From the NCBI GenBank assembly GCA_963663545.1, contig OY760505.1, positions 873,185 through 937,184 of the forward strand: DNA of 64,000 bases, in the 5' to 3' direction. The notes below the pieces were generated by a model. The model did not search any database. It had not been told where the DNA came from and worked only from the letters and a program-made list of their open reading frames with translations. This DNA comes from Candidatus Delongbacteria bacterium. GTDB taxonomy: Bacteria > CAIWAD01. The position numbers were made by a program, and so were the translations under genes. Shown piece after piece: positions 5,334 to 46,907 of the stretch; position 1 is the stretch's first letter, and each line of letters starts with the position of its first letter.

Positions 5334-5486
5334 AAGAAAGACCGAGAAGATAGCGTGGGAGGAGCAGCTTGTCAAGTCCACTCCCCCTTAATCGGTATCG
5401 GTGCCCATTCTCCGCGCCGCCCTTTTCCTGTTGTAATATCGAGACACAGATCGCAGATTGGGCGTACACAGATCCGGAGAATAGCG

Positions 5487-7778: not shown

Positions 7779-7796
7779 GACACAAGGGTGGAATAG

Positions 7797-10418
7797 ATGA
7801 AAACACACAGCATCATCTTGCTGGCTGGAGTGCTGGCAATATGCACCAGCGCATTTGCCCAGACGGGCACTCTGGCCGACTATCAGCTTCTAAGTCAGCG
7901 TGAGAGGACAATGGAAGAGACTTCTCTCTTTCATGGCTGCATTCACGCGATACAAAATCGTTTCCACACCAACGGCAATATTCCCCTTTCCGACCAGCGC
8001 TGTGAAAGATACTTCGGCCTGGCAAGTAGCTGCGAGGATCTGGATGAGATCCCTCTTGAGCAGTGCAGAGCAGTGTTTCAAGGTGGGCTGGTTACGCACG
8101 CACCTGAAGTGAATCTGGATCTGGACGTACTCCTAGAAGAGATTCGTAACACAGTGGCTAGCGAGAATCACTACCAAGGCTTCATGTATACTGAATCTGA
8201 GACACTGGCGGTGACCACCTACCTGAGATTCATGAACACTCAGTACGCCGTGTCACAGTATATCAGTTCCAGCGTCCAGGCTGAGTTGGACGATGACGGT
8301 GATCCAACGGGTGTATATGATACACTCTATGTTACTCCGGGTAACACGGACTGGGTTGTCCACCCCTTGCCGTCACTACAGAACGGAGAGGTCATTGTTG
8401 TAGAGGGCGTCTGCCGTCTTGAAGGCTTTGTCGAAGGACGTATCACAGTACTTTCCGCCGACAGTATGTTCGTCATGGATGACCTCGTGACCAGCGATGT
8501 GATCCTGGAGGAGTATGGGAATCGCGAGGTCTATGGCCTAGTACCAGAGAACTCGCCCAACTGCATTGGTCTGATCAGTGAAAGCAATGTGATCATCGCC
8601 AATACCTTGCCCAATGGAGCCTTCAACGGTGCAAACAGCAGTGATTTTTGCACCTCGGTGATGGGGCCAGCCTGGCAGGGAGGACCGGAGATGCCCGCCA
8701 ACATTCAGGTGGAAAACTCCAGCCGGCAGGATGTGGTGATCACGGCCAGCATTATCGCATTGGGATGCACATTCGAAACTGAGTTCTGGCACACATCGGC
8801 CACAGGAATCCCGCTACCAGAGACAGAGGGGACAGGTATGGGAACCCCAAACCCCCTCTGCGGCGGCATGAACAACTCGCACGTCGCACTCTGGCCTTGT
8901 GAGAACGCATCCCCTACACGGGATATCCGCGGTGCAGTCTGGTTTTGTGGTTCCGTCACACAGGCACTGACTGGCTTCCTTGGCCGTACTCCGCCCGGGC
9001 CATTAGATCCAGTATCAATTGGTTTGGAAATTGTGCGCCGCTACGATGAGAACTTGTATCACCGAGCTCCTCCGATGTGGCCCATCTCAAGTCTCAACCT
9101 ACACTACACGCGGCGTCTTCCCGACGGGCTGGAATCAGGGGATCACATCACGCCGGCGAAGCTCTACGAACTCGCAAGCGATACGACGGCTGGCATCTAT
9201 CTGCCCACAACGCTCGACCACTGTCTACTGCCCGACCACTATCGTCTTCTGCTGAATCACTGCATGTGTTGCGACAGCGTTCCCGTAGTGCAGCAGCCAC
9301 ATGAAATCGTATTGGATGATGCATCGATTGCGGTTCTTCTGCCCTTCCCACGAGTTGACTGCACCACATTTGCCCTTCCCGGTGATACAATTTCTCCTGT
9401 TCTTGGTGTCACTGCCTGGAATAGGAACGGTTCCGATTGTTCTTGGGTGCTAACCACAGGAGATCTGCAACTAGCCCCAGCTAGTATGGATGTTGAATGC
9501 GGCGAGCAGCCATTCTTCGATGAGTTCGTCCAGCGCTGGAATGCCGCCGACCAGCTCTTCCGTGTCGTTGAGAGTCCGGAGGTGGTTCATACCGTTCGCC
9601 TGGTGAATGAGGACGGAAACATCCTGGCCGAGTCATCGGAAGGGACTGTACTCTTCGCCCTGCCCGAGCTGGAAACAGGCGTGTATTTCGACTACCAATC
9701 CTACAAGATTCATGTGGAAGTACTTGGTCCATGGTCCGGCAGTGGCTGGACCTCACTGGACGAGCACACGTGGTGGCACAACGATGCGCCCGAATTCGAA
9801 TGGACACAGGCCCCGCCCGCCTGCGGCCAAGTGACAAGCAGGGAAGCCTTTCTTGCCAATTGGAACTCAGCTCCACCCGTGATACATCTGTTTGATCAAA
9901 ACCATGATTCGATTCATGTGCAGCTCCAGAACCAGGGCATCACATTGCGAGCATGGAGCCTGGCCGCAACACACATACCAACAACCCTTGAGTTAAGCAA
10001 TCTCGCGCCTGCCGACCTTCCCGGCGAAGCCTTCGAGCTCAGCTTGCACATCCATGACCGATTAGGCTTCGCTCCCGAAGGCTACGAGCCACTGGTCTGG
10101 TGGTACAACCCCGACACCGCTGTATCACCCGCCGAACTGCCGCAGGAGCTAAGCCTGCGCGCCTTCCCCAATCCCTTCAATCCGCGTACTACAATTGAAT
10201 TGGCGCTGCCGGTGGCGGGCGAGGTGCGCGTGGAGCTCTTTGACCTTGCGGGCCGCAGTGCGAGCGTGATACGCCGGGGCGAAATGGCTGCAGGTCTGTA
10301 TCACATTCCCGTGGACGGACAGAACCTTGCCAGCGGTTTGTATCTGCTGCGCGTCGAGGCGCCGGATGCAGCCGGGCAGCGGCAGCAGAGGGTGCAGAAG
10401 TTGCTGTTGGTGAAGTAG
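7797..10418 (+). CDS. secreted T9SS-CTD protein; paralog 2 of 3
   Basis: 873 aa, signal peptide MKTHSIILLAGVLAICTSAFAQTG. Shares the conserved central block with paralogs 1 and 3. Its last ~105 aa are near-identical to theirs. Confidence 0.85.
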   Translation: MKTHSIILLAGVLAICTSAFAQTGTLADYQLLSQRERTMEETSLFHGCIHAIQNRFHTNGNIPLSDQRCERYFGLASSCEDLDEIPLEQCRAVFQGGLVTHAPEVNLDLDVLLEEIRNTVASENHYQGFMYTESETLAVTTYLRFMNTQYAVSQYISSSVQAELDDDGDPTGVYDTLYVTPGNTDWVVHPLPSLQNGEVIVVEGVCRLEGFVEGRITVLSADSMFVMDDLVTSDVILEEYGNREVYGLVPENSPNCIGLISESNVIIANTLPNGAFNGANSSDFCTSVMGPAWQGGPEMPANIQVENSSRQDVVITASIIALGCTFETEFWHTSATGIPLPETEGTGMGTPNPLCGGMNNSHVALWPCENASPTRDIRGAVWFCGSVTQALTGFLGRTPPGPLDPVSIGLEIVRRYDENLYHRAPPMWPISSLNLHYTRRLPDGLESGDHITPAKLYELASDTTAGIYLPTTLDHCLLPDHYRLLLNHCMCCDSVPVVQQPHEIVLDDASIAVLLPFPRVDCTTFALPGDTISPVLGVTAWNRNGSDCSWVLTTGDLQLAPASMDVECGEQPFFDEFVQRWNAADQLFRVVESPEVVHTVRLVNEDGNILAESSEGTVLFALPELETGVYFDYQSYKIHVEVLGPWSGSGWTSLDEHTWWHNDAPEFEWTQAPPACGQVTSREAFLANWNSAPPVIHLFDQNHDSIHVQLQNQGITLRAWSLAATHIPTTLELSNLAPADLPGEAFELSLHIHDRLGFAPEGYEPLVWWYNPDTAVSPAELPQELSLRAFPNPFNPRTTIELALPVAGEVRVELFDLAGRSASVIRRGEMAAGLYHIPVDGQNLASGLYLLRVEAPDAAGQRQQRVQKLLLVK
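10081..10418 (+). repeat. direct repeat copy 2 (3' end of paralog 2)
   Basis: Nucleotide-level near-identity with 7441-7778 and 12421-12773. Confidence 0.85.
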
Positions 10419-10436
10419 CACATAGGCTGAGGAAGC

Positions 10437-12773
10437 ATGAAAAAAAGATTTGTTGTCTCTTTGACCGCACTGCTGACACTCAGTGCTGTAGCACAAGCAA
10501 ATACCGGAACACTAGCCGACTATCTCTACCTGACAAATGCAGAAGTATCACCCGAGGGTGAAACAGCTACCTTCCTGCCAGAGAGCTTTCAGGCAGGACA
10601 CACGCATACAAACGGCCAATTCAGCGTAACTGCTGATGATCTGCCTAGGGCCGGAGGCCTTGTCAGCAGCCAGTCCACGGAGATCGCCAATCTGTCTCCG
10701 CAGCAATACCCGGAGGTCTTCCCGGGCGGTCTGGTACTGGGTGCCGAAGGAGTGAGCTTCGACATCTCCGGTTCCCTTCAGCGAATGCGCACCGCAGTCC
10801 AGCCGGAACACCATTTCTCAGGCTATGCAGTTCTGGAAGGGGAGACACTGGCCGTCAGCACCTATCTCAAGTTCAAAGATGGTGATTACTATGTGGCCCA
10901 ATACCTGGCGAATTGTGTCACAGCAGAACTGGATGCCAATGGCAACCCGACCGGCATCTATGACACACTGTATGTGACACCTGGTGATGCGTACTGGAGC
11001 CTGAGGCCGCTTCCTTCCGTCCCGAATGAAGAGGTGATTGTTGTAGAGGGCGTTTGTCGCCTGGAAGGCCGGGTGATGGGCAGGGTAACTGTGCTTTCAG
11101 CCGACACACTGTTCATCATGGATGATGTTTACACGGCGGATGCAAATGTTTGTGCCAATTACGGTACAGAAGACCTCTATGGCATAGTTCCCTGTGGTTC
11201 CAGCAACTGCATCGGCCTGGTGAGTGAGCGGGATGTCGTTATTGCCGCCACACCTGCCAACGGTGCCTGGAACGGCAACGGTGTTTCGGTCAACAGATGT
11301 ACAGCCGTGATGGGCCCCGCCTATACCGGTGGACCTGCATGCGGCGACATTACAGATGTCACGAGTTTCTCCCAGCGAAACAAGGATGTCATTATCACTG
11401 CGGCCATCATCGCCCTGGGTTGCAGCTTCGAAGCAGAGTTCTGGCACACCTCGGCCACCGCATCCCCCTTGCCGGAGAGCGAAGGCAGCGGCCAGGGTAC
11501 ACAGAATCCGGCGATCTGCGGTTGTGAGGGCTTCTACGATTCGCACATCGCCTATTGGCCCTGCTACGGTGATGAATCCGTCCAGGACAATCGCGGGTGC
11601 ATCTGGATGGATGGGTCGCTGATCCAGATGACAAAGGGATACACCTGGCGGCCTGCCGGTGGTCCCTGGGGCCCGTGTGACATCGGCTACTGGCACTTCT
11701 TCCTGCGCTACGACCGCAATCTTGGACACCGGGCGCCACCGATGTGGCCCGTCAGCGCTTCCACGTTGAACTACGAGCTGGTGCTTCCCGCCAACATTGC
11801 AGCGGTGGACACTCTCTCACCTTGGAAACTGCATACCTTCACCGGCAATGGGTCAGTTGGCGTAATACTGCAAACCGGTCTTCCAAACAACACACTGCCG
11901 GAGACATTCTCACTCTACACGATTAACCACTACGGTGACTTTCATCTCATCAACGACAATTGTGTGATACAGCCGGCACCTTTCGAAATCACCCTACCGG
12001 ATTCGAGCACCGCCGTCTACTTCCCCTTCCCCGGATCCGAATACTGGGAAGGCTGCTCACCCGGTTCAACCATCCACTTCGAATTGGGTCCCGGCGCGTG
12101 GAATGAAGACGGCTGCAACAGTCACTGGACTCTGCAGGCCGGGCCCGTGGCAGCAGAAGCGGAGACCCTGGGCGTTACTGAAGGTGTACAGCCCGTCTTC
12201 AGCGAGTTCGTTCAGCAGTGGAATTCCACTACAAGCCGCCTTCGTATCACAGAGCGCGCCGATCTTGTGCTACTGGCGCGATTGGTTGACGGCGAAGGAG
12301 AGATTCTGGCCGAGAGCGAGTTCAGCAACAATCTCTTCGAGCTGCCAGCGCTGGACGCTGCACTCTTCAGCGATGATGATGCCTACGAGATTCACGTGGA
12401 AGTCTACGCTCCCTGGTCTGATCAGACCTGGAGTTCCGCAGGCAGCATCAGCTGGTGGTACAACCCCGACACTGCTGTATCACCCAATGAACTGCCGCAG
12501 GAGCTCAGCCTGCGCGCCTTCCCCAATCCCTTCAATCCGCGTACTACAATTGAGTTGGCGCTGCCGGTGGCGGGCGAGGTGCGCGTGGAGCTTTTCGACC
12601 TTGCGGGCCGCAGCGTGCGCGTGATACGACGGGGCGAAATGGCTGCAGGTCTGTATCACATTCCTGTGGACGGACAGAACCTTGCCAGCGGTTTGTATCT
12701 GCTGCGCGTCGAGGCGCCGGATGCAGCCGGGCAGCGTCAGCAACAGGTGCAAAAGCTACTGCTGGTGAGGTAG
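10437..12773 (+). CDS. secreted T9SS-CTD protein; paralog 3 of 3
   Basis: 778 aa, signal peptide MKKRFVVSLTALLTLSAVAQANTG. Its C-terminal ~215 aa are near-identical to paralog 1. Confidence 0.85.
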   Translation: MKKRFVVSLTALLTLSAVAQANTGTLADYLYLTNAEVSPEGETATFLPESFQAGHTHTNGQFSVTADDLPRAGGLVSSQSTEIANLSPQQYPEVFPGGLVLGAEGVSFDISGSLQRMRTAVQPEHHFSGYAVLEGETLAVSTYLKFKDGDYYVAQYLANCVTAELDANGNPTGIYDTLYVTPGDAYWSLRPLPSVPNEEVIVVEGVCRLEGRVMGRVTVLSADTLFIMDDVYTADANVCANYGTEDLYGIVPCGSSNCIGLVSERDVVIAATPANGAWNGNGVSVNRCTAVMGPAYTGGPACGDITDVTSFSQRNKDVIITAAIIALGCSFEAEFWHTSATASPLPESEGSGQGTQNPAICGCEGFYDSHIAYWPCYGDESVQDNRGCIWMDGSLIQMTKGYTWRPAGGPWGPCDIGYWHFFLRYDRNLGHRAPPMWPVSASTLNYELVLPANIAAVDTLSPWKLHTFTGNGSVGVILQTGLPNNTLPETFSLYTINHYGDFHLINDNCVIQPAPFEITLPDSSTAVYFPFPGSEYWEGCSPGSTIHFELGPGAWNEDGCNSHWTLQAGPVAAEAETLGVTEGVQPVFSEFVQQWNSTTSRLRITERADLVLLARLVDGEGEILAESEFSNNLFELPALDAALFSDDDAYEIHVEVYAPWSDQTWSSAGSISWWYNPDTAVSPNELPQELSLRAFPNPFNPRTTIELALPVAGEVRVELFDLAGRSVRVIRRGEMAAGLYHIPVDGQNLASGLYLLRVEAPDAAGQRQQQVQKLLLVR
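12421..12773 (+). repeat. direct repeat copy 3 (3' end of paralog 3)
   Basis: Nucleotide-level near-identity with 7441-7778. The longer homology with paralog 1 begins near 12112 and 7117. Confidence 0.85.
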
Positions 12774-12859
12774 GTCACTCCAGCACTCTGCTCGTACAGA
12801 CTTGCTGGCCAATAGTGCATCCATTGCACTAAGCAGAAACTGTGTATTAAGTGGCTATA

Positions 12860-13420
12860 CTACTCGCCAAATGTATTCTTAAGCTTCTGATAGATCTCTC
12901 TTTGAACTGCTCTACTGCAGCGCCGGATACGAGCTAAAAGAGATTTTGCATCCTCAGACAAAGGCGTAGAGTTAGCTTTGCCTTGGTTGCATGCTGAGCA
13001 TACTACTTGAAGGTTCTCACGCTTATTGCTTCCACCCTGTTCAATTGGGACTCTATGATCAATCACTAGCCGCACATTGCGTGAAGGATCCAACGGGTCT
13101 TTGTCGTCTTTCCCATTGCCACAAATTTGACAGGTAAAGCCATTTCGCTCTAAAATCTCCGCTCTAAGAGAAGCCGAAACGTTTCGTGATACAGCAGGAA
13201 GTCGTTCTTTGGATATAAGTATATACTCGCCAGGTTTAAGATCAGCCCGATCTTTGTGAGTATATATTTGGTACCCCATTTCGTTTCGTAATTCACGTAC
13301 CCTACGTGCCCATTCGCTAACACCAGCGACTTCGCGGAGTTGTTCGGAATCGACCACCACACCAAGGTGTTCAAGGAAAAACTTCTCAAGTCTCCACTTC
13401 GCGCCTTGCTTGACTGACAT
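12860..13420 (-). CDS. HNH endonuclease, putative restriction component
   Basis: 186 aa. C-terminal HNH motif …CQICGNGKDDKDPLDPSRNVRLVIDHRVPIEQGGSNKRENLQVVCSACN…. Sits immediately downstream of a C5-MTase in a region of reduced GC. Confidence 0.65.
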   Translation of the reverse strand: MSVKQGAKWRLEKFFLEHLGVVVDSEQLREVAGVSEWARRVRELRNEMGYQIYTHKDRADLKPGEYILISKERLPAVSRNVSASLRAEILERNGFTCQICGNGKDDKDPLDPSRNVRLVIDHRVPIEQGGSNKRENLQVVCSACNQGKANSTPLSEDAKSLLARIRRCSRAVQREIYQKLKNTFGE

Positions 13421-13451
13421 CCATCCTCCGTGTACTCACTATCTTGTGACA

Positions 13452-14624
13452 TCATCTCCGACAAGATTCTAGCAAAGCTGTAATGCAATCTGCTACGTGT
13501 GCGGCCAGAACTGGAGGCACTGCATTCCCAATCTGCTTGGCTATCTCAATCTTTGTCCCTTTGAATTCAAACCAATCGGGAAAAGACTGAAATCTCGCTG
13601 CCTCACGCATTGTAATTGGTCTATGCTCACTTGGATGCAGATATCTACCCTTCTCTGGCTTGTAGAACTCGGTTCGGATTGTGACAGCTGGACGATCCCA
13701 CCACAAACGACCAAACAGGTCCGTTCCGCCACTCTTCTTTCGGATCCAGCAGCTAGGAGTCAAGTGTGGAGCCAGTTGCTGGAGATCAAACCGATTCATA
13801 CCCTCATCAGGAATCGCCTGATACCGTGCCAGACTCTTCGCGGTTGGATTTCTACCAAAGTGAAGGTTAAGCGGTGCTGGCTCATCTCTGACTTCTGTCC
13901 CAACTGGCTTGAGTGGTAGATCACGAATCGCATCTCGCACAGTTCGCCACGTCTCTGGATGATCTACATACTGCGACTGAAACAAAGTACTACTGGTTTG
14001 GAAGCCGTTTCTTGCATTGTAGAACCTACGCATGGGTGGGAAGAACTCGCGCGGGTCACCAACGCGGCTGCCCAAAATGAAAGCACGTGATCGTGTCTGT
14101 GGAACACCATAGTCTGCTGCACAGAGCTTCTCAGAATGTGTCACAAAGCCTATCTGTTCCGCATAACCGACAATTTCCCGATGCTCTTCGGAAGCAAGAA
14201 TTTGGGGTACATTTTCTATCAGAAATACTCGAGCTCCAGATCGCTCCACGATTTCCATAAAGGGGCGCCATAGCGTCTTTCGCGGATCATTTTCACGATT
14301 CTTGTTTAGTAGCGAGAAGCCCTGACAGGGTGGTCCACCAATCACAACATCAGCTCTCGGGATCTCCACCCCAGAGGCAAGAATCTCGAGGATATCCCCA
14401 GCAACACAATGAGTACCGAAATTGGCTGAATAAGTCTCGGCGGCTAACTCGCTACTATCATTAGCCCATACTGATTTAAAGTTGTGGCCAAGTCTTGGAT
14501 CAAAGCCAAGAGTTAATCCTCCTGCTCCAGCAAACAAATCAATAAGTGTATATGGTGTTTTTCGCCCTGTGGTTGGCTGACCTTGTAGCCGCCTTTGGGT
14601 AATCTCTTGAGAAGTAGTCTTCAT
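13452..14624 (-). CDS. DNA (cytosine-5)-methyltransferase
   Basis: Motif I (LIDLFAGAGGLTLGF), motif IV (GGPPCQGFS) and ENV motif (FLIENVP). Start set at MKTTSQ (ATG 14624, GGAG upstream). Local GC is lower than the flanks. Confidence 0.85.
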   Translation of the reverse strand: MKTTSQEITQRRLQGQPTTGRKTPYTLIDLFAGAGGLTLGFDPRLGHNFKSVWANDSSELAAETYSANFGTHCVAGDILEILASGVEIPRADVVIGGPPCQGFSLLNKNRENDPRKTLWRPFMEIVERSGARVFLIENVPQILASEEHREIVGYAEQIGFVTHSEKLCAADYGVPQTRSRAFILGSRVGDPREFFPPMRRFYNARNGFQTSSTLFQSQYVDHPETWRTVRDAIRDLPLKPVGTEVRDEPAPLNLHFGRNPTAKSLARYQAIPDEGMNRFDLQQLAPHLTPSCWIRKKSGGTDLFGRLWWDRPAVTIRTEFYKPEKGRYLHPSEHRPITMREAARFQSFPDWFEFKGTKIEIAKQIGNAVPPVLAAHVADCITALLESCRR

Positions 14625-15592
14625 TGCTCCGCTCATACTTTGACGAAATAATAGCGTGCCCCTGAGACATCCTAGGAAAGCTGACATACCGTCGGATAAT
14701 TCAAGCGCCTATGAGATTGGAGTCCCAGCCAAGCGGAACAGCCGGATGGTCAGTTTAACAAATCGGGATCAATCTCTTCCGAAGACTACTGCTGGATCTC
14801 GTGTCCTAGCTAGGCGTCCAGTCACACGCAAACAAGCTGGTGTGTCACACGGGGAATCAGTCGCTCCTTTGGCTGATTTCGCTACTAGTAGTATTCGCAA
14901 CCTTCGTATGACAACCGATTGAAGACCTCGCGTACACGCGCCTTCCTTTGGTGGGAAATTGTGGAATGGGTGGCTTCTTTCATGCTCTTCCAGAAGTGTT
15001 GGTGCAAGCTGGGGACCTCGCTCTTTGATGTTTCACAGTGTGCTCACCTAGTCTGACCCAGGATATAGGGGTGCTCATCATTTCTGGCCGAGTTACTCAC
15101 GTTATTGTGCTTGTGATCCGCCCCAACACCTGCGCCTCAAGGCCATTCGCCAAAGGCGGAACACACATAGACAGAAGGCTCGCAATCTCATCCATGGCGA
15201 TGTTGCAGTCCTTGGGGGCGAGACTTCGTCTCAACCACTTTACGCACGACGTTGTCGAGGGACAAGTAGTCGGGATGGATTTCTTCGGTATCGAAATTGG
15301 CAAGTCACTTCGATTCACTTTCATCATTGGTCAAGAATCACTTCCGCCCATCTCCCAAACAATCGCCCCCGAAAATCATCATCTGGCTTCGGGGGTTCTC
15401 TTTCCCTTCGCGCCCATCGCCCGCTAAATCTAACACCGCTCTTCTTCAGTGCCTCTGTATTCTATAGCACCATCAACGACTTACAAGCGCTTCTGTTGAC
15501 TCCCACGGCCTGGTCCAACTTGCGAATTCAGTCATTTTGTTCTATCCTATCAATCATTCCTGTTGAAATCATTTCGAAGCAAAGAATCCAAA

Positions 15593-16150
15593 ATGCCCAC
15601 CCAAAAATCCATGAATGAGCCGGCACCGCTCGCGGACGAGGTTTTCTTTGAGACCTGCGGCATTCGCGTACTCACCGCGCTACGGCGCATCATTCGCGCT
15701 GTGGACCTGCACTCGCGCAAGCTAAACGGCGATTACCAGATCACGGCACCGCAGATGATCTGCCTCTACAGCCTGGCGCGTCACGGCGAGATGACCCAAA
15801 TCGCGTTGGCCAAGCAGGTCAGCCTGAGCGCCAGCACGGTCAACGGCATCATCGACCGGCTGGAAAAACGCGCCTACGTCCAGCGCAGACGTTGCGACCA
15901 GGATCGTCGCCGCGTTTACGTCAGCATTAGTGAAAGCGGCCGCGAGTTGACTCAGTCTGCGCCCGCGCTGCTGCAGGACAAACTGGCCGCCGCACTGCGC
16001 CGTCTGCCGGAGCTGGAGCAATTCGCCATTGCCACCTCCCTGGAACGCGTGGTGGAGCTGATGAGCGCGTCCGAACTGGACGCCTCGCCCAACCTGCTGC
16101 CGAACGCCGCCATTGAAGAAGCTGGCGCGGCAAACCAAAAGGAACTGTAA
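15593..16150 (+). CDS. MarR-family transcriptional regulator
   Basis: Winged-helix MarR signature …[61 protein letters not shown]…. Exact start uncertain: the table ORF begins at a TTG at 15563. Confidence 0.7.
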
Positions 16151-25816: not shown

Positions 25817-26051
25817 AAAGACCTATGAAAATCTGCAAACTAGAATGACTGAATATCCTGATTAACCTGTTTGCGGATTATATCCCCATCATATCTATCC
25901 ACGACACTTCTATTAACAGTATCTCGCAATCTAACATCTATCATAACACCTTGATTCATCTTGTCACTTCGGCTAATTTATCGAAAACATTCTAACATTC
26001 TATTTTCTTCTGACAGTCCTGCACTTACAACATTTTTGACTATTTCAGATG

Positions 26052-27626
26052 CTAAATATCACAACCACCTCCTGATAATGCTTTTTCCATTTCTGCTAAT
26101 ATTTCTTTCTCTCGCATTTTCGCTTGTTGTATACTTACTAAAATTGATTTAACTAATCGCAGAACTACAATTCCATTTGATTGCACTGAATGCTTAGCTA
26201 TAGTCTCCAAACACCCATTATCATATGTATAGCGTAACTTTGAAATTGATTTTAATTTATAGAATTTACTCCTTGAATCACTTGTGAACGCATAAAGCAT
26301 GTCTACTATTCCTTGTACTAATGGATCTTTAAATTTGTATTTATATGCCATAGTATTGCAATCCAAGTCACCAAGTAGCGACATTATTACCGGACACCTA
26401 CTCATTGCTGTACCAACATTTATTGCTACCGATCTCCAAAACCACTGATTTGATTCTATAAGTCCATTCTTCTCGTAAAAACGTACATTTTCCTCTAATT
26501 CACCTATCGTTACCAACGGATCAAATGCAATATATCCGCAATCAAAACTCATACTAATTTCTTTTAATATTTTTATTGCTACTTCTGCTTGTTCAGCAGT
26601 ATATCCCCTGTTATATCTTTGCAATTGTGAATCTACTCCACTCTCAATTCCAATGTATAGCCTCTTTAATCCTACTGACCTATAGTCATTTAATAAACCT
26701 TTAATTGTTTCTACGTGATTGAAATCACCATTTCCTACTATGAATCCAGGTCTAACAAATATTCGAAACTGAACTTCACGTTTAGATCTCCTTCTTGCTT
26801 CATGAATAAATCTACGTATCTTATTTGCACGATCAAGATTTTGACTACAATATTTGCCAAAAAAATCATCATCACAAAATTCTATAACATCAACCCCTAA
26901 ATCACATATGAGATGGTTAATATCCCTTTCAATTCGGTCAATAGAAAAGCTCTCCCATCCGCGATTTCTAAAGCTATACCTCGTGCAAAACGAACACTTT
27001 CCCCATGAACATCCACGCGAGAGCTGCGCTTGAACAACCTTAATTCCATCAACCTCTTTTGGTGTATACTTTGGCAAATATGGCAGTTTTTGCAATTTCG
27101 GAGTATTTACCGGTAGCTTACTTATACGACCACATCCATTGTCTTCTGAAAAGCTAACAACACCATCAATTTTCCTTATTGTATGGAGATTTTGCACACT
27201 CTTATTCAAACATCCCACAATCAGCTCTATTACACGTTCAGCTTCACCTCCTACACAAAACACTTTTCCAATATCAAGACAGTTTAACGAATTAATTCGA
27301 TTTAAAATCTCTTGTGGTAAATACGTTGGCAGCTGCCCCCCTAATAGCAAAATACCCGTATCTAACAAATTGAGTGTTTTTACAATATTCAAACACAGCT
27401 CGATTGTATTAGTAGAGACACTAATGCCAATAATATCATACTCGACATCAGAAGCATAGTTTTCCACAAAGCAATCAATAGTATCACATTCAATGCGATC
27501 AATAAGAATCGAGTCACCGTAGACACCCAGCAAATGTCCCTCTAACGCATCAAGCGACAACATATTCCAAAATGAATAATGATCAATTGACCTCAAACCT
27601 ACGAACAAAATCCTTATAAAAGGCAT
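26052..27626 (-). CDS. class-B radical SAM enzyme with N-terminal B12-binding domain
   Basis: 524 aa. Rossmann-like N-terminal domain (…DIIGISVSTNT…ILLLGGQ…) is followed by a radical SAM core with SRGCSWGKCSFC, i.e. CxxxxCxxC as in B12-rSAMs. Strongly AT-rich codon usage, unlike the host genes. Confidence 0.8.
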   Translation of the reverse strand: MPFIRILFVGLRSIDHYSFWNMLSLDALEGHLLGVYGDSILIDRIECDTIDCFVENYASDVEYDIIGISVSTNTIELCLNIVKTLNLLDTGILLLGGQLPTYLPQEILNRINSLNCLDIGKVFCVGGEAERVIELIVGCLNKSVQNLHTIRKIDGVVSFSEDNGCGRISKLPVNTPKLQKLPYLPKYTPKEVDGIKVVQAQLSRGCSWGKCSFCTRYSFRNRGWESFSIDRIERDINHLICDLGVDVIEFCDDDFFGKYCSQNLDRANKIRRFIHEARRRSKREVQFRIFVRPGFIVGNGDFNHVETIKGLLNDYRSVGLKRLYIGIESGVDSQLQRYNRGYTAEQAEVAIKILKEISMSFDCGYIAFDPLVTIGELEENVRFYEKNGLIESNQWFWRSVAINVGTAMSRCPVIMSLLGDLDCNTMAYKYKFKDPLVQGIVDMLYAFTSDSRSKFYKLKSISKLRYTYDNGCLETIAKHSVQSNGIVVLRLVKSILVSIQQAKMREKEILAEMEKALSGGGCDI

Positions 27627-27642
27627 TATTTAACTCACTAAT

Positions 27643-28878
27643 TTATTGTTCAATCATTGCTTGTATTTCTTCCGATACTTTATCACAAGAGTATTCGTAT
27701 TCACTAGCTTTATCGCCGTTAGATTTTCGCATCTTCACCTTAAATACTGTGCCGTCGTTACTAAAATTTGGTAGCACGCCACCCATGCGATACGGGACAG
27801 TAAACATAACTTCCACATTGTTACCATCTTGCGACCTTTGAAAATTCAGCAAATCATGAACAACTCTATTATCGTTAACCAGTATTTGCAGCATTAGAGC
27901 TCCTGCAGCCCTGCACCCAGAGAACAAAAATACATATTTGCTATCGTTTTCCTTTGCCCATGGGTTTTTACAGCATGAGATTAACGCATAATCAGTATGT
28001 GTCATGTTTTCCTGCGACTCATTTGAAACAGTAGGACAACACATAATACCATTCGCAATTATACAGGCCATATTTGTTTCACCACATACACCTGTTCTAG
28101 AACCGCTAGTACATTCAGAATTCCCAGGACACTTAATGAAACTTGCGAACAAACCTGGTTGATCGCCCTGTTTTAGCATTTTATCAATAAATCTCTTTGT
28201 TACTGAGTTTGTTTTACTACTGCCAAGAAGTATTAGATTACGGTCGCCTAATTTTTCTTCTTCTGATCCGACTTCACAACTACATTTTATTCTTACTCTC
28301 CTATCACCAAGAACCGATTGAACAACACCATACAGCTTCATTGCCAATAAGCTTTCTTGTAATATTAATGGTATACTAGAAGATGTTTTTGCTAAATCAC
28401 CACGTCTATGTTTTAAATCATTACTAACAACATCACTCCAATAACTATCTTTTTCTGAGTCAATTTTATGTGAGAATATCACATCAACTCTTGCTCCTGA
28501 CGCATAAATCTCATCAAGATGAAGAAATTGTGCCAGAGGCTTATATCCAGCAGTATCGGCCATATGAGTTTCGAGTAACTCAACTATCCTATAACAATTT
28601 TTGTCAATTCTTGAACATTTGGATACATTAGATAACAGTTCACCTATAGCACGCTTGGATTTTGCAATAGCATTATTAAAACGCAAAAACATCACTACAA
28701 CACCTATAACTATATAAATAGTGATTATAATAATCATTAACCACAGAAGTTGGCTATTCACCATCCCGAGTTTAAAATGCGACGCCAAAAGTCCAGATAC
28801 GGCAGTAACCAACGGCGAATAGCGCCAAACAATTTTCCATATCCTCTTCCAGATGGTGTTTTTCCTGTCGTTTGGCAT
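27643..28878 (-). CDS. N-terminally membrane-anchored protein of unknown function, Cys-rich soluble domain
   Basis: 411 aa. N-terminal hydrophobic helix (LWLMIIIITIYIVIGVVVMFL) then about 330 aa of soluble sequence with no motif I can assign. Lies 16 nt upstream of the B12-rSAM gene on the same strand, with the same AT-rich composition. Confidence 0.7.
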   Translation of the reverse strand: MPNDRKNTIWKRIWKIVWRYSPLVTAVSGLLASHFKLGMVNSQLLWLMIIIITIYIVIGVVVMFLRFNNAIAKSKRAIGELLSNVSKCSRIDKNCYRIVELLETHMADTAGYKPLAQFLHLDEIYASGARVDVIFSHKIDSEKDSYWSDVVSNDLKHRRGDLAKTSSSIPLILQESLLAMKLYGVVQSVLGDRRVRIKCSCEVGSEEEKLGDRNLILLGSSKTNSVTKRFIDKMLKQGDQPGLFASFIKCPGNSECTSGSRTGVCGETNMACIIANGIMCCPTVSNESQENMTHTDYALISCCKNPWAKENDSKYVFLFSGCRAAGALMLQILVNDNRVVHDLLNFQRSQDGNNVEVMFTVPYRMGGVLPNFSNDGTVFKVKMRKSNGDKASEYEYSCDKVSEEIQAMIEQ

Positions 28879-29099
28879 ACTTCACACCTGCTGACATTTA
28901 TTCTTAACTACCTTCTGTCTGTTCCGGAGCCAAGCTACTATGTAATGCTGTTTTGAGCCAGCACTTTCGAGTAGATATCAGACAAGCTCTTCTCTCGATA
29001 CTGTAGGAACTCTTCATCTGAGACATCTCAGACCACACAGGGTCGAAATTGAGTTCTAGATCATACACACCAGCTTTGATCGCTAATCCTGATTACCTA

Positions 29100-29700
29100 G
29101 TATCCTCCGATTACCGCAGGCTGCCCAGCGGCCTTTTCGTGGAGCTGGCAGCAGCTCGTAGCAATCTGCATAACAGCCCCTGCTGGTTGAACCTGCAATT
29201 GATGAGAAACAGAAGTAGGCCGAAGTAGCGAGGCAGGTAGCGAGCTTCTGACTTGTGGTGCACACCAACGAGGCTGGTCTTCAGATTGCCCAGGATCGGG
29301 TTCGCCCAGCGAAAGACAATTTCCAGCAAACGCTTTCTACCCTTGACCGCATTCGGAGCGTAATCCTGAGCAGTTTCCTTGATCGCCGGAAAGCCCCCGA
29401 GGGCATCAGAAAACACAAAGGCCTGAGCCGCGAAACGCTGGCTTGCTCAAGCTGAAACAGGGATTCGCGGAAGTTGGGAAGGACGCTATGACAAGATGAC
29501 GCACGCCATTGTTCTCATTACGATCCACAGCAAACACAAAGGGTGTCTTGTACGGGAATCCGCGTCCGGTCTTCTACTCAGGACGTTTTCCTCCATGTAC
29601 GCATCGTCTATTTCAATCGTTTTCATCAAAATGCGACCCACCTCCTGACTGACAACTACGTCCATCAGCTTGTGCATCATCAGCCAGGCGGTGCAGTATG
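29100..29700 (-). pseudogene. decayed IS4/IS5-like DDE transposase fragment
   Basis: Broken minus-strand frames give …LLEIVFRWANPILGNLKTSLVGVHHKSEARYLPRYFGLLLFLI…. This resembles the conserved C-terminal segment of IS4-family transposases (…IELFFKWIKQ…). No intact ORF. Borders the AT-rich island. Confidence 0.4.
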
Positions 29701-29963
29701 TGTCCTATTGTGCAGCCACAACACAGATAGACCAAGTCTCAAGGCCAACGGCATTTGTGATAAATGATCGGGACCAATCTTTAGTAAGCACATAGCAATA
29801 GTACACGCGGATCTGTACCGAAAGTCCTATCTAAGCACAGCCATTCAATTATATAAATATGCCGTCCAGCAAGCGGAACCCGATCCCCGGTGAGTTGATC
29901 GACGCGTAGAAGTCTACTCATCCACAGGATCGACAGCGATAGCAATACCCTGATCCAGAAAGG

Positions 29964-30392
29964 TCAAAGACTAAGCAAGACGATGCCGCCCACGGTCAGC
30001 AGCATGCCGAGCGCCGTTTTCAGAGTCAAGGTCTCGCCGCCCAGCATCAAGCCCATCAAGGCACCGAAGAGTGGAGAAGTAAACGCAATGGGCATCACGC
30101 GATTCAGCGGAGCGCCCTTCAGCGCGGCGTAAAAGCAGAGCATGCCGCCAGCACCGGCCACCACGCCACCGCCGATGACCATCATCCACAAGGCGCGCGG
30201 TGGAGCGGAGAGCAACAACTTCCACTGGGGCGCACTCACCAAGCCCAGGATCAGCAGTGCCACGGCGGTACGAATGCTAATGCCCAGCTGAGGCGACAGA
30301 TGCCCCATGTGCAGGCCCTTTTTCTCGAAGTAGCCGCCAATGCCCCAGGCGGCGGCCGTGAACAGTGCCAGAAGCTGTGGATTGAACTTCAT
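29964..30392 (-). CDS. EamA/DMT-family small membrane transporter
   Basis: 142 aa, 4-5 TM helices, Gly-rich EamA-like pattern. Confidence 0.65.
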   Translation of the reverse strand: MKFNPQLLALFTAAAWGIGGYFEKKGLHMGHLSPQLGISIRTAVALLILGLVSAPQWKLLLSAPPRALWMMVIGGGVVAGAGGMLCFYAALKGAPLNRVMPIAFTSPLFGALMGLMLGGETLTLKTALGMLLTVGGIVLLSL

Positions 30393-42508: not shown

Positions 42509-42581
42509 TCGCGCTCCCACAAGGCAGAGAAAGGGGACGACGGAAAAACCGCCGCCCCCATCAACAAACTTCAAGCTACAA

Positions 42582-43199
42582 TCAGTCGCCGAACTCTTCG
42601 TTGTAGTCGGCCATGGAAGCCTCTACTACTTGCAGCGCGTGATCCAGGCCGTAGACCTTCTCGATGGAGGTCGTGCTCTCCTGTCCCGGAATCAGCTTGT
42701 AGGTACTGAAGTAGTGGGTCAGACGGTCTACCAGAGCGCTTGGCAGATCCTCCAGATCGTGCACCTGTCCCCAGATATTGTCCTTCTCCAGAATGGCGAT
42801 GATTTTGTCGTCGGCCTCGCCCTGATCGATCATCTGCAAACCGCCCACCACTCGCGCCTGCAACAGAATTTCCGCCTGGCTGATGGGACGCTCGCTGATG
42901 ACACAGATATCCAGCGGATCACCGTCGCCGCTTTTTGCCACTGGCGAAAGTGATTTCACGCGCCGTCCGCAGTAGGTGCGGGGAATGAACCCGTACAGCG
43001 CGGGAGGATGATTGCTGGAACGCTGGGGCCGGTCGACTTTCAGGTAGCCCGTCTCTTTATCAACCTCGTACTTCACCAGGTCGAAGGGTGTAATCTCGAT
43101 GTAGGCCGTTACCACTCGCGGTGCTTGCTCACCGGCTCCCAGGCCGTGCCAGGGATGCGGTCGCCAGCGGTAGAAGGGCTTTGGAAAGGACACGTTCAC
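42582..43199 (-). CDS. ppa: inorganic pyrophosphatase (family I)
   Basis: …HPWHGL…AYIEITP…DGDPLDI… motifs. A GTG start at 43199 gives a GTGA overlap with the upstream cytochrome gene stop. Confidence 0.85.
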
Positions 43200-45859
43200 C
43201 TCATCACACTCGCCGTTTGCAGACCCATGTTGGGATGATGCATCGGCATGGTCATCTTCTTCTTGTGACACAGCGCGCAGTTCTCTTCTGCACCGATGCT
43301 CCTGGTGTTCCCCTGATACTGCAGGGGCTGCAGGTTGTCACGATTCGCCTCAAAGATATTGTGTGCCGGGTAAACAGCGTGAGTCGAGCCGTGGCAGGCT
43401 TCGCACATCAGCTTGCCGGTGCCGTCGTGACTCATGCGATAGAGTTTGCTGCCGTCGGGCGTCCACTGGTTGAAGGCACTGGCGTTCTCGGCGGCGGGAT
43501 TGAAATCCTTGTGACAGCCACTGCAATCAGGCTCGTTCAACCAGGGCTGGCGCGCGTTGATTTGGGCGACATCGCTCACCTTGCGCGGACGCAGGTTGGC
43601 CATCAGACGGGCAGCGCCCTTCTTGCCATGCTCGTGCTCGTACTTCAGCAGACTCAGGGCGTGATCCTCAAGCGTGCCATGGCAACTGGTGCAGTCGGTG
43701 GCGTCGCGATGGGCACCACGCAGGCAGTGCGTTGATCCCGTGGGAGACGAAGGATGGCAGCGCGCACAGGCATCGGCCCCCGCGTCGCTCAAGTAATTGG
43801 CATGCCAACCGTGCATGGCAGCGGGGAAGGATAGCAGCTCGGGTTGTCCCTGGGTTCCCAGCACCGGATCGGCATGGCAGCTCTGGCAAAGATGGGGTTC
43901 ACCCGCTTGCGCCTGCTCCAGCAGATTGGTGCGGCTGTAGCGATCATGGGCAAACAGGATGTCGGCCGAAGTGGCATCGCTGAAACCGGCCACACCATCG
44001 ACGCGCCAGGGCCCCCCGTGGCAATTTCGACATCCCATCTCGGTCGAGTTGGGCGCCACTACCTTGGTGCGCGCCAAGAGGGCCCCCTCTGTATCACGCG
44101 CCGTCACTTCAAAGACCGGGAAGGGATTGTACTTGCCGTCCTGGTAGCAGGTCACCGGAATCAGATTGGCACCAAAGGCGTGATGCGCCTCTTCGTACTT
44201 CATGTCGCCACTGACGCCATTGCCGGACAGACCGACGCCCACCGGCAGATCCTTGGCCCCGAAATTGGAGTGGGCGAATTCCCAGAAGCGTACATCGTCC
44301 TGTGGAGTGCGGAAGCCCTCTTCCACTTCATAGCTGATGGTGACACCTTCGCTGACCACCTCTGGCTTGGCACCGCGACGAATGAGTTGAGCGAAAAGGT
44401 CGTTGGCCGGCGGCAGCAGGACCCAGTAGGGATCGCTGTCGCTGATGCAGTGCATGCCCAGATTGTTCCAGGCCAGCAACACGTAATCGTCCTTCTTTGG
44501 GTCAAAGGGCGGAATCTCGGTGTGCAGCTGAGGCGGCGTCCACGCAGGCGCTTCCGGTCGCGGCTTAGCCTGTAGCTCGTATACGACGTAGGCGGCCAAC
44601 GCTTCCTTTTCCTCCTGTGTGCCCACAAAAGGCGGCATGTAGCGATTAACCTTGCCCTGGCCCGTCATCTGGGCCTGCAGACCGAAGCTGCTGTATTTGG
44701 CCGTGAGGGGCAGGATGTCATTGAGCACACCGTTCACGCTGTGACACGCGGCGCACTCGAGCTGAAACAGCCGACGCCCCATCTCGATCTGGTTGTCCGG
44801 CGTGATACGACGCTCGGGCAGCCAGCGCGCATGGGCCAGCACGCCTTCCTGATTGATCTGCTGCACCTGCGAGGGCATAACGTTGCTGGAATAGAGGTAA
44901 TCGTAGATCACGAAGGGGCGACGTCCCGCCTCACGGATGTACTCGAAGCTGCCGATCCAGGAAAGCCCGACAAGCAGCATTACAGCCGCCAACAGACCAT
45001 GAATCAGCTTGGGCGGACGCAGCCAGCCCAGTACCGTAGCCAGCAGACTGGCAAGGCCCAGCGCTCCGCCCACCATGACGATACGGCCCAGCCACACGTA
45101 GATTTCAGGCGAGCGCTGCAAAATGATCTCACGAACTTCAGGCGGAGTGGCATGTAAGTACCACCACGCAGCAGGCAGGCTGAGCAGGAAGGGCGGCAGC
45201 AGCCAGGTGGCGCAGGCCTTCATGGCACGCAGCCGCAGCTCGCGATCGCGCAGGAAAGCCGAGGTGAAGAAGCCGAACAGACCGGCGATGGTGAGCGCCA
45301 GGAAGGTGCGGAAGACCAGCGCAGGCAGGAAGCCCGGGTTGAAGAAGCCCAGCCAGAAGTTGCCGTTTTGCAACCAACCACCAGGCGTGAGCATGAAGGT
45401 CAGAATGCCATTGATGATGAAGAGCGAGGCCCAGGCGGCACCGAAGTAGATCCAGCCGATCTTGATGTGCGTCTTCGGATTCATCTTGTCGAAAGTGGCC
45501 ACGTAAATCAGCAGCGCGGCGATCTCGACAAAAAAGAAGACCCACTCCGTAGCCCAGCCGAAGACGAAGTTGTGAATCAGCACCGAGGTCGCGGCGGGAT
45601 TGAGCAGCGAAATCGTAAACCAGATGCCCACGCCCGTCAGACCACCGAAAACCATTGTCAACAGCAGGAAGAACTTGGCGTGAACGCGTACGAAGTCCAG
45701 CAGCCCCTTGTCCTGCGTGTTACGCGCCTTGGACTCCAGCAGCACCAGAAAGAGACCGCCGCCCACGGCAAAATGTGATACAAAGACATGCACGATGGCG
45801 ATCAGCGCAATCCAGAAGCCGCCGCCCGTTGTCCAGAGTTCCCAGTAGGGGTAATTCAT
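43196..45859 (-). CDS. cytochrome bd (CydA)-like membrane domain fused to a C-terminal octaheme c-type cytochrome domain
   Basis: Start set at MNYPYWELW (ATG 45859, GGGAGGGA upstream). The N-terminal helix …[23 protein letters not shown]… aligns with the CydA heme-ligand helix (…MYHFLFVPLTLGLAFLLAIMET…). About 10 TM helices. The C-terminal ~480 aa carry eight CxxCH motifs: CAACH, CRNCH, CQSCH, CARCH, CTSCH, CSGCH, CEACH, CALCH. Confidence 0.8.
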
Positions 45860-45860
45860 G

Positions 45861-46907
45861 TTATCCCTCCCGGACCGCGGCTGCGGCCTGCTTGAGCATC
45901 CAACCAAGAACCACCAGTCCACCCACGAAGGTCACAAGGAAAAGGATCATCGGGCTGTACTGTGTCACCTGCGGCAAATCAGCCAGCGAAAAATCGGGCA
46001 GATAACCGCCGCGCACGGCGTCGCGCATCAGCGCCATGACGGCTACCAGCAGCGCCAGCATACTCACCGTCGGCCAGACCCTTTTGCGGAAGCCAGTCAC
46101 TAGCACACCGACTGCCAGCACAACGCCCAGCAGCAGCAGAATGGTGGCGTAAAGGCTGTCCCCCATGAAGAGCAATAAAATCGGCCGCGGCAGCGCAATG
46201 AGGAACCAGAGGCCGATGAAGATTTGTATCACGGTAGCATAGCTGAATATGTTCATGCCGTAATCGACGACCGCCCTCATCTCGGGCTTCTTGGCCAGCT
46301 GGCGCTGGGCCAGTAGTGCGCGTGTCAGACCACCAACAGCAAGGGAAGCAATGACAAAGTGCAGCCAGCGCGGCCACAGAGTGGAATCTCCCAGCAGCAG
46401 TGTACCGGAAGCATCACTGAACCAGGCACCCCAGTCACCGGGGCGCAGCATGAGCGTCATGTTGGTGGTAAAGAAGAAGGAAACCACCAGCAAGAGTGCG
46501 CATACGAGTAGTAGCACAAACGTGCGCCCGACACCTGGCTCACTCAGCTTGTAGCGCAGAATGTACAAGCCATAGTAGGCCGTCATCAGCAGCACAATAA
46601 TCGACAGCCACCACACAGCCATCATGATGGAGCTAACGTAGATATAGTGGCCGAAGAGCACCTGGACGAAGAGCAGAGGAGCCACACCCAGATTGATAGT
46701 GAAAGCCATCAACCAGGGAAGCTGGCGCCCCATTCCCGCGTCACGGTTCTGTCCGCGAACGCTGTCGGCAAAGGCCAGCAGCACGCCGCCCAGCATGGCG
46801 TTCATCACCAGTAGATGCAGGACGAAGGTCAGGATCAGTAAGAGTTGAAACCAGCCCCACGCCACCGGAATGGCATCGGGAGTTGGAATCAGATCGCCTG
46901 GAGTCAT
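45861..46907 (-). CDS. cytochrome bd (CydA)-like integral membrane protein, no heme-c domain
   Basis: 348 aa, about 9 TM helices. N-terminal helix …LTFVLHLLVMNAMLGGVLLAFAD… resembles CydA helix 1. Its stop lies 1 nt upstream of the fused gene. Confidence 0.6.
   Translation of the reverse strand: MTPGDLIPTPDAIPVAWGWFQLLLILTFVLHLLVMNAMLGGVLLAFADSVRGQNRDAGMGRQLPWLMAFTINLGVAPLLFVQVLFGHYIYVSSIMMAVWWLSIIVLLMTAYYGLYILRYKLSEPGVGRTFVLLLVCALLLVVSFFFTTNMTLMLRPGDWGAWFSDASGTLLLGDSTLWPRWLHFVIASLAVGGLTRALLAQRQLAKKPEMRAVVDYGMNIFSYATVIQIFIGLWFLIALPRPILLLFMGDSLYATILLLLGVVLAVGVLVTGFRKRVWPTVSMLALLVAVMALMRDAVRGGYLPDFSLADLPQVTQYSPMILFLVTFVGGLVVLGWMLKQAAAAVREG

Follow-up and report, generated by a model that had tools for sequence, protein, structure and literature searches.

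An OR-C1-type gene pair of the cytochrome bd superfamily with an eight-haem C-terminal tail

Described relatives and organisation of the locus

The closest described system is the OR-C1 family of the cytochrome bd superfamily, which is known from genomes. OR-C1a was described as a protein of eight helices with a C-terminal haem c part containing up to eight motifs, and OR-C1b as its adjacent eight-helix partner (Murali, Gennis and Hemp, 2021; bioRxiv 10.1101/2021.01.16.426971). The same authors assigned the family as an oxygen reductase, proposed cytochrome c as the electron donor to OR-C1, and counted 532 OR-C in the GTDB. Judged by its conserved residues, a gene pair in the 64-kb stretch of DNA analysed here (the window) is a member of the OR-C1a/OR-C1b family (Table 1). 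It has in common with the described pairs an eight-helix CydA-like subunit without a quinol site and a haem-c-free eight-helix partner, and it shares with the OR-C1 members from Desulfovibrionia the same C-terminal haem c part with eight CxxCH motifs. Ten of the 11 OR-C1a signature residues are identical, at the same residue numbers (F183, H24, E105, E112, S145, H131, L153, Y119, V77, and W80), the sole exception being A121 instead of Y121. This substitution and the probable co-transcription of a pyrophosphatase gene (ppa) distinguish the window locus from OR-C1 as published. In addition, weak hints suggest a host outside the Desulfobacterota; no rRNA occurs in the window.

Canonical CydAB (5doq/5ir6, 6rko, 7d5i) has the equivalents of H19, E99, E107, and E445 as well as the pseudo-symmetric two-subunit design in common with the window pair, but the window subunit a has eight helices instead of nine and neither a Q-loop nor b558 ligands, its partner is a CydA-like paralogue without a CydB Pfam match, and covalently attached c haems are the presumed point of electron entry. 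With the cbb3-type (CcoP/CcoO) and caa3 oxidases only the principle is common, namely that attached His/Met c haems feed a membrane O2-reducing site, whereas the catalytic subunit is unrelated (theirs belongs to the haem-copper superfamily) and the window enzyme has no copper site. The MtrC/OmcA-type cytochromes (PF22113) also have a multihaem domain behind a beta-sandwich, but in the window protein the module is attached to an enzyme of the inner membrane and not to an outer-membrane porin complex.

Table 1. Features of the OR-C1 locus and their positions in the window.
Feature	Position	Strand	Description
OR-C1b (gene b)	45861..46907	-	348 aa, haem-c-free membrane subunit, 8 long helices
OR-C1a (gene a)	43196..45859	-	887 aa, ATG start
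OR-C1a membrane domain, residues 1-315	44915..45859	-	8 helices, CydA-like, without Q-loop
Class I monohaem cytochrome c domain, residues ~345-430	44570..44827	-	C369AACH motif
Beta-sandwich domain, residues ~455-601	44057..44497	-	between monohaem and multihaem parts
Seven-haem module, residues 603-887 and stop codon	43196..44053	-	seven CxxCH
ppa, family I soluble inorganic pyrophosphatase	42582..43193	-	203 aa; PF00719, NF001886
Terminator-like hairpin 3' of ppa	42533..42559	-	11 pairs, 9 G-C; consensus scan

The genes are arranged in the order b, a, and ppa, the latter beginning 2 nt after the stop codon of gene a and being followed by the strong hairpin, which as a pattern match only likely marks the end of a three-gene transcript. 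Gene b starts with ATG and has AGGAG 8 nt upstream; a single nucleotide separates its stop codon from the start of gene a (TAAcATG), just upstream of which GGAGGG is located. An alternative GTG start of gene a, which would yield a product of 908 aa, was rejected and the 887-aa version retained because all 30 aligned homologues begin with MNYP or MEYP. Gene layout, Pfam matches, and fold confirm the tandem of bd-like membrane genes, the second with a multihaem tail, that was reported in a preliminary description of this DNA.

The two membrane subunits

Profile-profile and fold comparisons were needed because single-sequence comparisons were too weak (phmmer with the membrane domain of subunit a against the PDB gave no match, and BLASTP of b against a an E of 0.11). 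Pfam Cyt_bd_oxida_I (PF01654) matches residues 17-214 of the gene a product with 38.6 bits (cut-off 26.2), the profile of subunit a matches CydA in the PDB (E 2.8e-5), and the AF2 model, like all AF2 models used here calculated without haems, shows eight helices within residues 14-313. An hhalign comparison with a shallow profile of four canonical CydA sequences yielded consistent residue pairings at non-significant scores (E 0.037 and 0.98). NrfD, PsrC, ActC, or ActF were in no case the best sequence or fold match of the membrane proteins. An NrfD/PsrC-like affiliation, which the preliminary description had named as a finding that would overturn its reading, was thus not encountered.

In E. 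coli numbering, H24 of subunit a corresponds to H19, E105 to E99, and E310 to E445. The equivalents of H19, E99, and E107 are kept, with six residues separating the two glutamates (E105 and E112). H24, E105, E112, S145, and E310 are present in all 68 sequences compared (identity range 41-100%), and H131, the equivalent of H126, differs in four of them. The pairing of E310 with E445 comes from a weak alignment segment (5.2 bits) together with the conserved motif R-E-x-G-R-R-P. Its position is blank in Supplementary Table 6 of Murali et al. (2021), beyond which the present alignments go by pairing these two residues and by placing retained histidines of subunit b at the positions of H19 and H186. 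The helix-1 histidines that had been pointed out earlier in both proteins correspond to H31 of subunit b and to H24/H29 of subunit a, of which H24 aligns with the H19 equivalent of the solved CydA.

The canonical Q-loop, which had already escaped recognition at first reading, is indeed absent: helices 6 and 7 are connected by about 13 residues in both AF2 models, compared with about 150 residues in the canonical CydA genes of related loci (CydA of locus L068 served for comparison). At the position of the haem b558 histidine (H186), subunit a carries F183 according to the alignment and to Supplementary Table 6 of Murali et al. (2021). The Q-loop and the H186/M393-ligated haem b558 of the qOR (CydAB) are therefore not represented in subunit a, which lacks both the loop and the two ligands as OR-C1a does. 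Of CydA, subunit a keeps the four-helix core, the residues that putatively ligate the high-spin haem pair, and those of the proton channel facing the cytoplasm (E105, E112, S145, and H131), but has lost haem b558, the Q-loop, and helix 9. The loss of helix 9 would leave its C-terminus in the periplasm.

By profile and fold comparison, subunit b is a paralogue that has diverged from the CydA-like domain encoded by gene a and stands in the place of CydB. The hhalign comparison of subunit b with the membrane domain of subunit a gave 95.8%, and in fold subunit b is slightly closer to CydA than to CydB. The profile of subunit b had no match in the PDB and no Pfam family matched the protein, so no CydB match was obtained either. 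A CydB partner as in the qOR is thus missing, and what adjoins gene a is an eight-helix CydA-derived protein without the proton-channel glutamates, as in OR-C1b. Residues that are specific to OR-C and invariant (H29, E42, and H60 in a; H31, H183, and M291 in b) could bind further haems and alter the electron route.

Some of these residues bear on the idea that electrons flow inward to the menaquinone pool, the enzyme being a periplasmic cytochrome c:quinone oxidoreductase. The logic would resemble that of the Qrc of sulfate reducers, in which a multihaem c subunit is joined to a membrane module. The hosts of OR-C1 are mostly anaerobes with c3 networks, the conserved cytoplasmic proton path would suit quinone reduction equally well, and H31, H183, and M291 of subunit b could make a haem and quinone site. 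Nevertheless, we consider such a function decidedly unlikely: the His/Glu ligation kept here, which in CydA yields high-spin haems that bind gas, is known for gas binding and not for quinone reduction, a quinone-site motif could not be recognised, and the published assignment is that of an oxygen reductase.

The haem-bearing tail and the distribution of the gene pair

CxxCH occurs eight times in the gene a product (residues 369, 610, 658, 698, 723, 779, 819, and 861), compared with 0.018 occurrences expected from the protein's own Cys/His content, and no such motif occurs in the other open reading frames of at least 80 aa in the window. All eight motifs and M408 are invariant in the 68 sequences, and 65 of the 67 relatives share the motif count of eight. 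Motif count and conservation thus agree with the eight-CxxCH periplasmic tail initially ascribed to the second protein. Pfam Cytochrome_CBB3 matches residues 357-425 with 29.3 bits (cut-off 27), and the profile of this monohaem domain matches cytochrome c6 chains (E 1e-4). C369, C372, and H373 are kept together with M408, which likely is the sixth ligand of the C369AACH haem and would make the domain a His/Met class I cytochrome c. Cytochromes of this class occur as donors to oxidases.

The beta-sandwich (AF2 strands at 459-601, pLDDT mostly 82-95) gave no significant match to solved structures; together with the first haems it co-occurs in many unrelated architectures. The seven-haem module was matched by Pfam Cytochrome_C7 (36.5 bits) and gave a weak NrfH-like match. 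H638, H683, H686, H717, H827, and H874 are kept in 67-68 of the 68 sequences; the invariant histidines suffice in number for bis-His ligation, which is probably realised in this module. Stand-alone relatives of the module exist, and others are fused to PASTA, cohesin/dockerin, DUF11, or CARDB. The window protein had no match to PF22113 (MtrC/MtrF II/IV) at E <= 1, but many homologues of the gene a product carry a precomputed match to this family, and the stand-alone relatives P0365, P0374, and P0363 reach 34-36 bits (cut-off 30). Multihaem modules with relatives fused to cell-surface domains can pass electrons either way.

More than 3800 homologues were found among the candidates scored, with 581 confirmed genomic matches. 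According to the genome matches the hosts are mostly strict anaerobes and include metal reducers of the Desulfuromonadales type; Pseudodesulfovibrio aespoeensis and Desulfogranum mediterraneum are hosts available in culture. The b-a pairing is kept in 74 of 80 loci, in many cases with the two genes overlapping by 4 nt, whereas the neighbouring genes are variable (126 Pfam families among 95 neighbours) and no conserved accessory genes were found around the related loci. Because its neighbours are otherwise so variable, the b-a pair is regarded as a self-contained module. Canonical cydAB adjoins the pair in four to five loci; no other respiratory neighbour was encountered more than twice. In two loci, ODP and Flavodoxin_1 matches of neighbour proteins are read here as a putative flavodiiron-type protein. 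As oxygen-related genes, these neighbours and cydAB count in favour of O2 reduction. Monohaem relatives in D. vulgaris may be located in the fdh2 (DVU2485-2481) operon; were DVU2484/DVU2485 monohaem OR-C1a/b, the O2-insensitive tungsten formate dehydrogenase FDH2 would be a natural donor.

The ppa product is an ordinary family I enzyme (PF00719, 157.5 bits; NCBIfam NF001886, 304.7 bits with a cut-off of 247) that is 70-76% identical to enzymes of many phyla. A stop/start overlap of gene a and ppa had been proposed, and a GTGA in the ppa reading frame is in fact found at 43199-43196. Either start leaves the genes closely packed, but the overlapping one was rejected in favour of the likelier GTG at 43193, which has GAGG 5 nt upstream and yields a product whose length is that of the database entry and common to most homologues. 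The additional view of ppa as a meaningful operon partner did not hold up, since ppa is next to the b-a pair in none of the 80 other related loci and is also absent in L081; only two close relatives (L082 and L083; gene b product 86% identical) have it there. A functional link, such as a coupling of the respiratory module to the hydrolysis of pyrophosphate, could be read from the 2-nt gap (or 4-nt overlap), from the lack of a terminator until past ppa, and from the retention of the arrangement in the two close relatives. Given an enzyme so ordinary and so widely shared, and its absence beside the pair elsewhere, synteny nearly refutes this link, which we find scarcely credible. Instead, ppa is probably a lineage-specific neighbour that is co-transcribed with the pair, and this co-transcription would be owed to a chance arrangement of neighbouring genes.

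Direction of electron flow and significance

Slightly better than even, in our estimate, are the chances that OR-C1 is a two-subunit oxidoreductase of the cytochrome bd superfamily in which electrons from periplasmic donors pass through haems c and a membrane haem pair to O2. Low-potential periplasmic donors would reduce the seven-haem module, which would pass the electrons to the His/Met haem c and from there to the membrane haem pair, where cytoplasmic protons would be consumed as O2 is converted to water. Oxygen would thereby be detoxified and a contribution made to the proton-motive force. A missing quinol site, combined with the retained ligands of the O2 haem pair and the retained proton channel, makes flow from a periplasmic donor to O2 the likelier direction. 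Fold, homology, residue conservation, gene pairing, and family assignment are shown by the analysis, and from them we infer haem loading, electron-flow direction, and O2 as the substrate; O2 reduction rests on conserved residues, since no purification, knockout, or functional study of an OR-C was found in the literature, in keeping with the sparse experimental characterisation remarked on in the preliminary description.

That description had suggested a quinol-interacting module with outward electron flow rather than O2 reduction. Quinol would be oxidised by the bd-like part and the eight haems would conduct electrons outward, as in CymA, CbcL, and ImcH, the acceptor being periplasmic or extracellular. 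The relatives of the tail that stand alone or are fused to surface domains, some of them above the MtrC/MtrF II/IV Pfam cut-off, and the Desulfuromonadales-type metal reducers among the hosts fit such a model. We consider it quite improbable, however, as the Q-loop is missing and F183 occupies the b558 histidine position, while the gas-binding haem pair and the cytoplasmic proton-uptake residues, neither of which a quinol dehydrogenase needs, are conserved (H24, E105, E112, S145, and E310 throughout). Moreover, the His/Met haem c is nearest to the membrane domain in sequence and is expected to have a high potential, so that transfer from it to the bis-His haems would be uphill, and no conserved outer-membrane or acceptor genes were seen near the related loci. 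The published reading with cytochrome c as donor likewise speaks against this model.

As most hosts are strict anaerobes, the place of O2 may be taken by the quinone pool or by an oxidant such as NO or H2O2. Inward flow with NO, H2O2, or nitrite as the physiological substrate appears unlikely to us. It would be in line with the anaerobic hosts, the variation at H131, the replacement of Y121 in the window protein, and the two loci with putative flavodiiron-type neighbours, and side activities towards peroxide and NO have been described for canonical bd oxidases. On the other hand, the sequence indicates no specific alternative substrate, and the recurrent respiratory neighbour is canonical cydAB and not a set of nitrogen-oxide genes. 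A broader version, to which we assign a rather low probability, would treat OR-C1 as an inward gate in which an MtrC-like seven-haem antenna takes up electrons from donors in the periplasm or outside the cell and passes them to haems of both subunits (with extra ones at H29/H60 in a and H31/H183 in b), with the quinone pool or an oxidant other than O2 as final acceptor; anaerobic respiration would then have re-used the bd scaffold.

No new principle emerges from the window locus itself, but it provides a clean two-gene example with the full eight-haem tail that is usable for expression and structural work. The OR-C branch is widespread, and its substrate, haem content, and direction of electron flow are predictions from sequence. 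Should the family indeed use electrons of periplasmic cytochromes for O2 reduction, it would represent a third route, next to the haem-copper oxidases, by which cytochrome c is oxidised, and a main protection of sulfate and metal reducers against oxygen.

Gene organization and genomic neighborhood

Gene b (encoding the OR-C1b partner subunit), gene a (encoding the OR-C1a CydA-like subunit with its heme-c tail), and ppa, which codes for an ordinary family I soluble inorganic pyrophosphatase, form a tight three-gene array on the minus strand, and the location given in the preliminary description was confirmed. The stop codon of gene b is separated from the ATG of gene a by a 1-nt gap (TAAcATG), with GGAGGG immediately 5'. 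A 908-aa reading of gene a was rejected, as 30 of 30 aligned homologues start with MNYP or MEYP. The GTGA overlap of gene a and ppa described earlier is present at 43199-43196 and lies in the ppa frame, but ppa translation more likely begins at the GTG at 43193, because that codon is preceded by GAGG 5 nt upstream and because the resulting product corresponds to the protein-collection entry and is common to most homologues. The best named matches of ppa were Calditrichia-like.

Features of the three-gene array (window positions)
Feature	Position	Strand	Details
gene b	45861..46907	minus	348 aa
gene a	43196..45859	minus	887 aa
ppa	42582..43193	minus	203 aa
terminator-like hairpin	42559..42533		3' of ppa, 11 pairs

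Gene b immediately precedes gene a in 74 of 80 related loci, and the two often overlap by 4 nt. Conservation beyond this pair is nil, the 95 flanking genes spanning 126 Pfam families. The ppa gene, the downstream gene for an FAD protein, and the upstream genes adjoin the pair in none of the 80 loci and are absent from the nearest relative locus (61% identical); the order b-a-ppa is shared only by two close relatives, in which the product of gene b has 86% identity. Canonical cydAB genes adjoin the pair in four or five loci. In the loci L068, L070, L074, and L077, from Desulfobulbaceae and related genomes, they are situated about 1–4 kb upstream and encode a CydA of 510 aa with a long Q-loop and a CydB of about 377 aa. 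Neighbor proteins in two loci matched ODP and Flavodoxin_1, which we read as a putative flavodiiron-type protein.

Elsewhere in the window, a low-GC island (26001-30000; GC 0.36–0.44, compared with about 0.59 in the rest) has a strongly negative GC skew and looks horizontally acquired; it holds a radical SAM/B12-binding protein (26052-27626) and a 411-aa ORF without Pfam match (27643-28878). A second GC dip (0.52; 12001-16000) contains a C-5 cytosine DNA methylase (13452-14687). Three successive large ORFs of 807, 873, and 778 aa (5355-12773) have no Pfam match, and the last one scores just short of the threshold for a type IX secretion C-terminal sorting domain (26.6 bits versus a cut-off of 27). 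Taken with the Calditrichia-like ppa matches, this is a hint that the host may belong to the Fibrobacteres-Chlorobi-Bacteroidetes group and not to the sulfate reducers.

Membrane domains

Residues 17-214 of the gene a product match Pfam Cyt_bd_oxida_I (38.6 bits versus a curated cut-off of 26.2), and its family profile finds the Geobacillus CydA structure 5doq_A (E 2.8e-5). Gene b has no match in Pfam or NCBIfam, and its homologues are all annotated as hypothetical; its family profile can be aligned to the membrane domain of gene a (95.8% probability, E 7.9e-9, 274 columns). On these profile comparisons both products are thus bd-type, as previously proposed, and membership in the NrfD/PsrC family does not hold.

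The alignments showed that gene a keeps the equivalents of several Escherichia coli CydA residues, namely H24 (H19 in E. coli), E105 (E99), E112 (E107), H131 (H126), and S145 (S140). Invariant in all 68 sequences are H24, H29, E105, W106, E112, Y119, S145, R184, E306, R309, E310, and R313, and H131 is kept in 64. A conserved 11-residue motif aligns with G-W-x-x-A-E-x-G-R-Q-P-W of CydA, so that E310 may correspond to E445, based on a weak alignment segment and 100% conservation. The position of the heme b558 histidine is occupied by Phe (F183). The Q-loop is absent, as had been noticed from the sequence: helices 6 and 7 are joined by 13 residues, and by about 150 in the canonical CydA of related loci. 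Gene a has 8 helices versus 9 in CydA, which with CydA topology would place its C-terminus in the periplasm, the site of c-type heme attachment.

In two chained alignments, the invariant H31 of gene b aligned with gene a H24 (the H19 position) and the invariant H183 with F183 (the H186 position of b558); M291, R295, and R299 are also invariant, and the proton-channel glutamates have no counterpart. The heme-c-free gene b subunit may therefore bind its own heme(s). Residues invariant specifically in OR-C are H29, E42, and H60 in gene a and H31, H183, and M291 in gene b.

Periplasmic heme-c tail

The product of gene a contains eight CxxCH motifs (residues 369, 610, 658, 698, 723, 779, 819, and 861), versus 0.018 expected from its own composition, and none occurs in any other ORF of at least 80 aa in the window. 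All eight are invariant across 30 homologues and kept in 67–68 of 68 sequences with identities down to 41%, and exactly eight are found in 65 of 67 relatives; the fusion to a bd-like membrane part had been recognized correctly. A class I cytochrome c (Pfam Cytochrome_CBB3) occupies residues from about 345 to 430 and matches cytochrome c6 in the PDB (E 1e-4), and the invariant Met408 indicates His/Met ligation of this monoheme. A predicted beta-sandwich (residues 455-601) is followed by seven CxxCH motifs within residues 603-887. Of the 68 sequences, 67–68 keep H638, H683, H686, H717, H827, and H874, 66 keep H875, and 64 keep H733. These histidines would suffice to give each of the seven hemes bis-His ligation, and no site is obviously left open.

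Residues 434-887 (window 43199-44560) served as query for an exhaustive phmmer search, which retrieved 1106 representatives (E ≤ 0.001). Many are stand-alone proteins of about 470–600 aa, several of which exceed the cut-off of the Pfam MtrC/MtrF II/IV model, and others are fusions with PASTA, cohesin/dockerin, DUF11, or CARDB surface domains. These many architectures suggest that the tail is a mobile electron-exchange module grafted onto a bd core.

Affiliation with OR-C1 and proposed electron flow

Murali et al. (bioRxiv 10.1101/2021.01.16.426971) distinguished qOR, OR-C, and OR-N within the bd superfamily and described OR-C1a as an 8-helix CydA without quinol site whose C-terminal heme-c extension has up to 8 motifs in Desulfovibrionia, whose gene adjoins that of an 8-helix OR-C1b, and whose likely electron donor is cytochrome c. 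Of the 11 residues in their OR-C1a signature (F183, H24, E105, E112, S145, H131, L153, Y119, Y121, V77, W80), gene a has 10, identically numbered. Two eight-heme members in their list lie on the same contigs as our related loci L035 and L060, and their OR-C1b list has heme-free hypothetical proteins resembling gene b. Their residue table omits this subunit. The locus thus belongs to a known family, which is described from genomes and experimentally untouched: no biochemical or genetic study of OR-C1 was found in the literature, where later papers just cite the classification. As a guess from gene order and protein size (47.7 kDa), the monoheme OR-C1a Dvul_0759 of D. vulgaris DP4 may be DVU2484 of strain Hildenborough in the fdh2 operon (DVU2485-2481), whose formate dehydrogenase is reported to be O2-insensitive.

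The preliminary description had proposed outward electron transfer from quinol to a periplasmic acceptor. Such a quinol dehydrogenase appears unlikely, since the quinol entry is gone and the gas-binding heme pair is kept, and we consider a Qrc-like quinone reductase improbable to the same degree. Loss of quinol entry, retention of the gas-binding heme pair and proton path, and attachment of a His/Met heme c rather point to inward electron flow to a catalytic membrane site, which we regard as probable. Periplasmic donors would feed electrons into the seven low-potential hemes of the tail, from which they would pass to the His/Met monoheme next to the membrane domain and on to the membrane heme pair, where O2 would be reduced; for O2 specifically as the substrate our preference is only slight.
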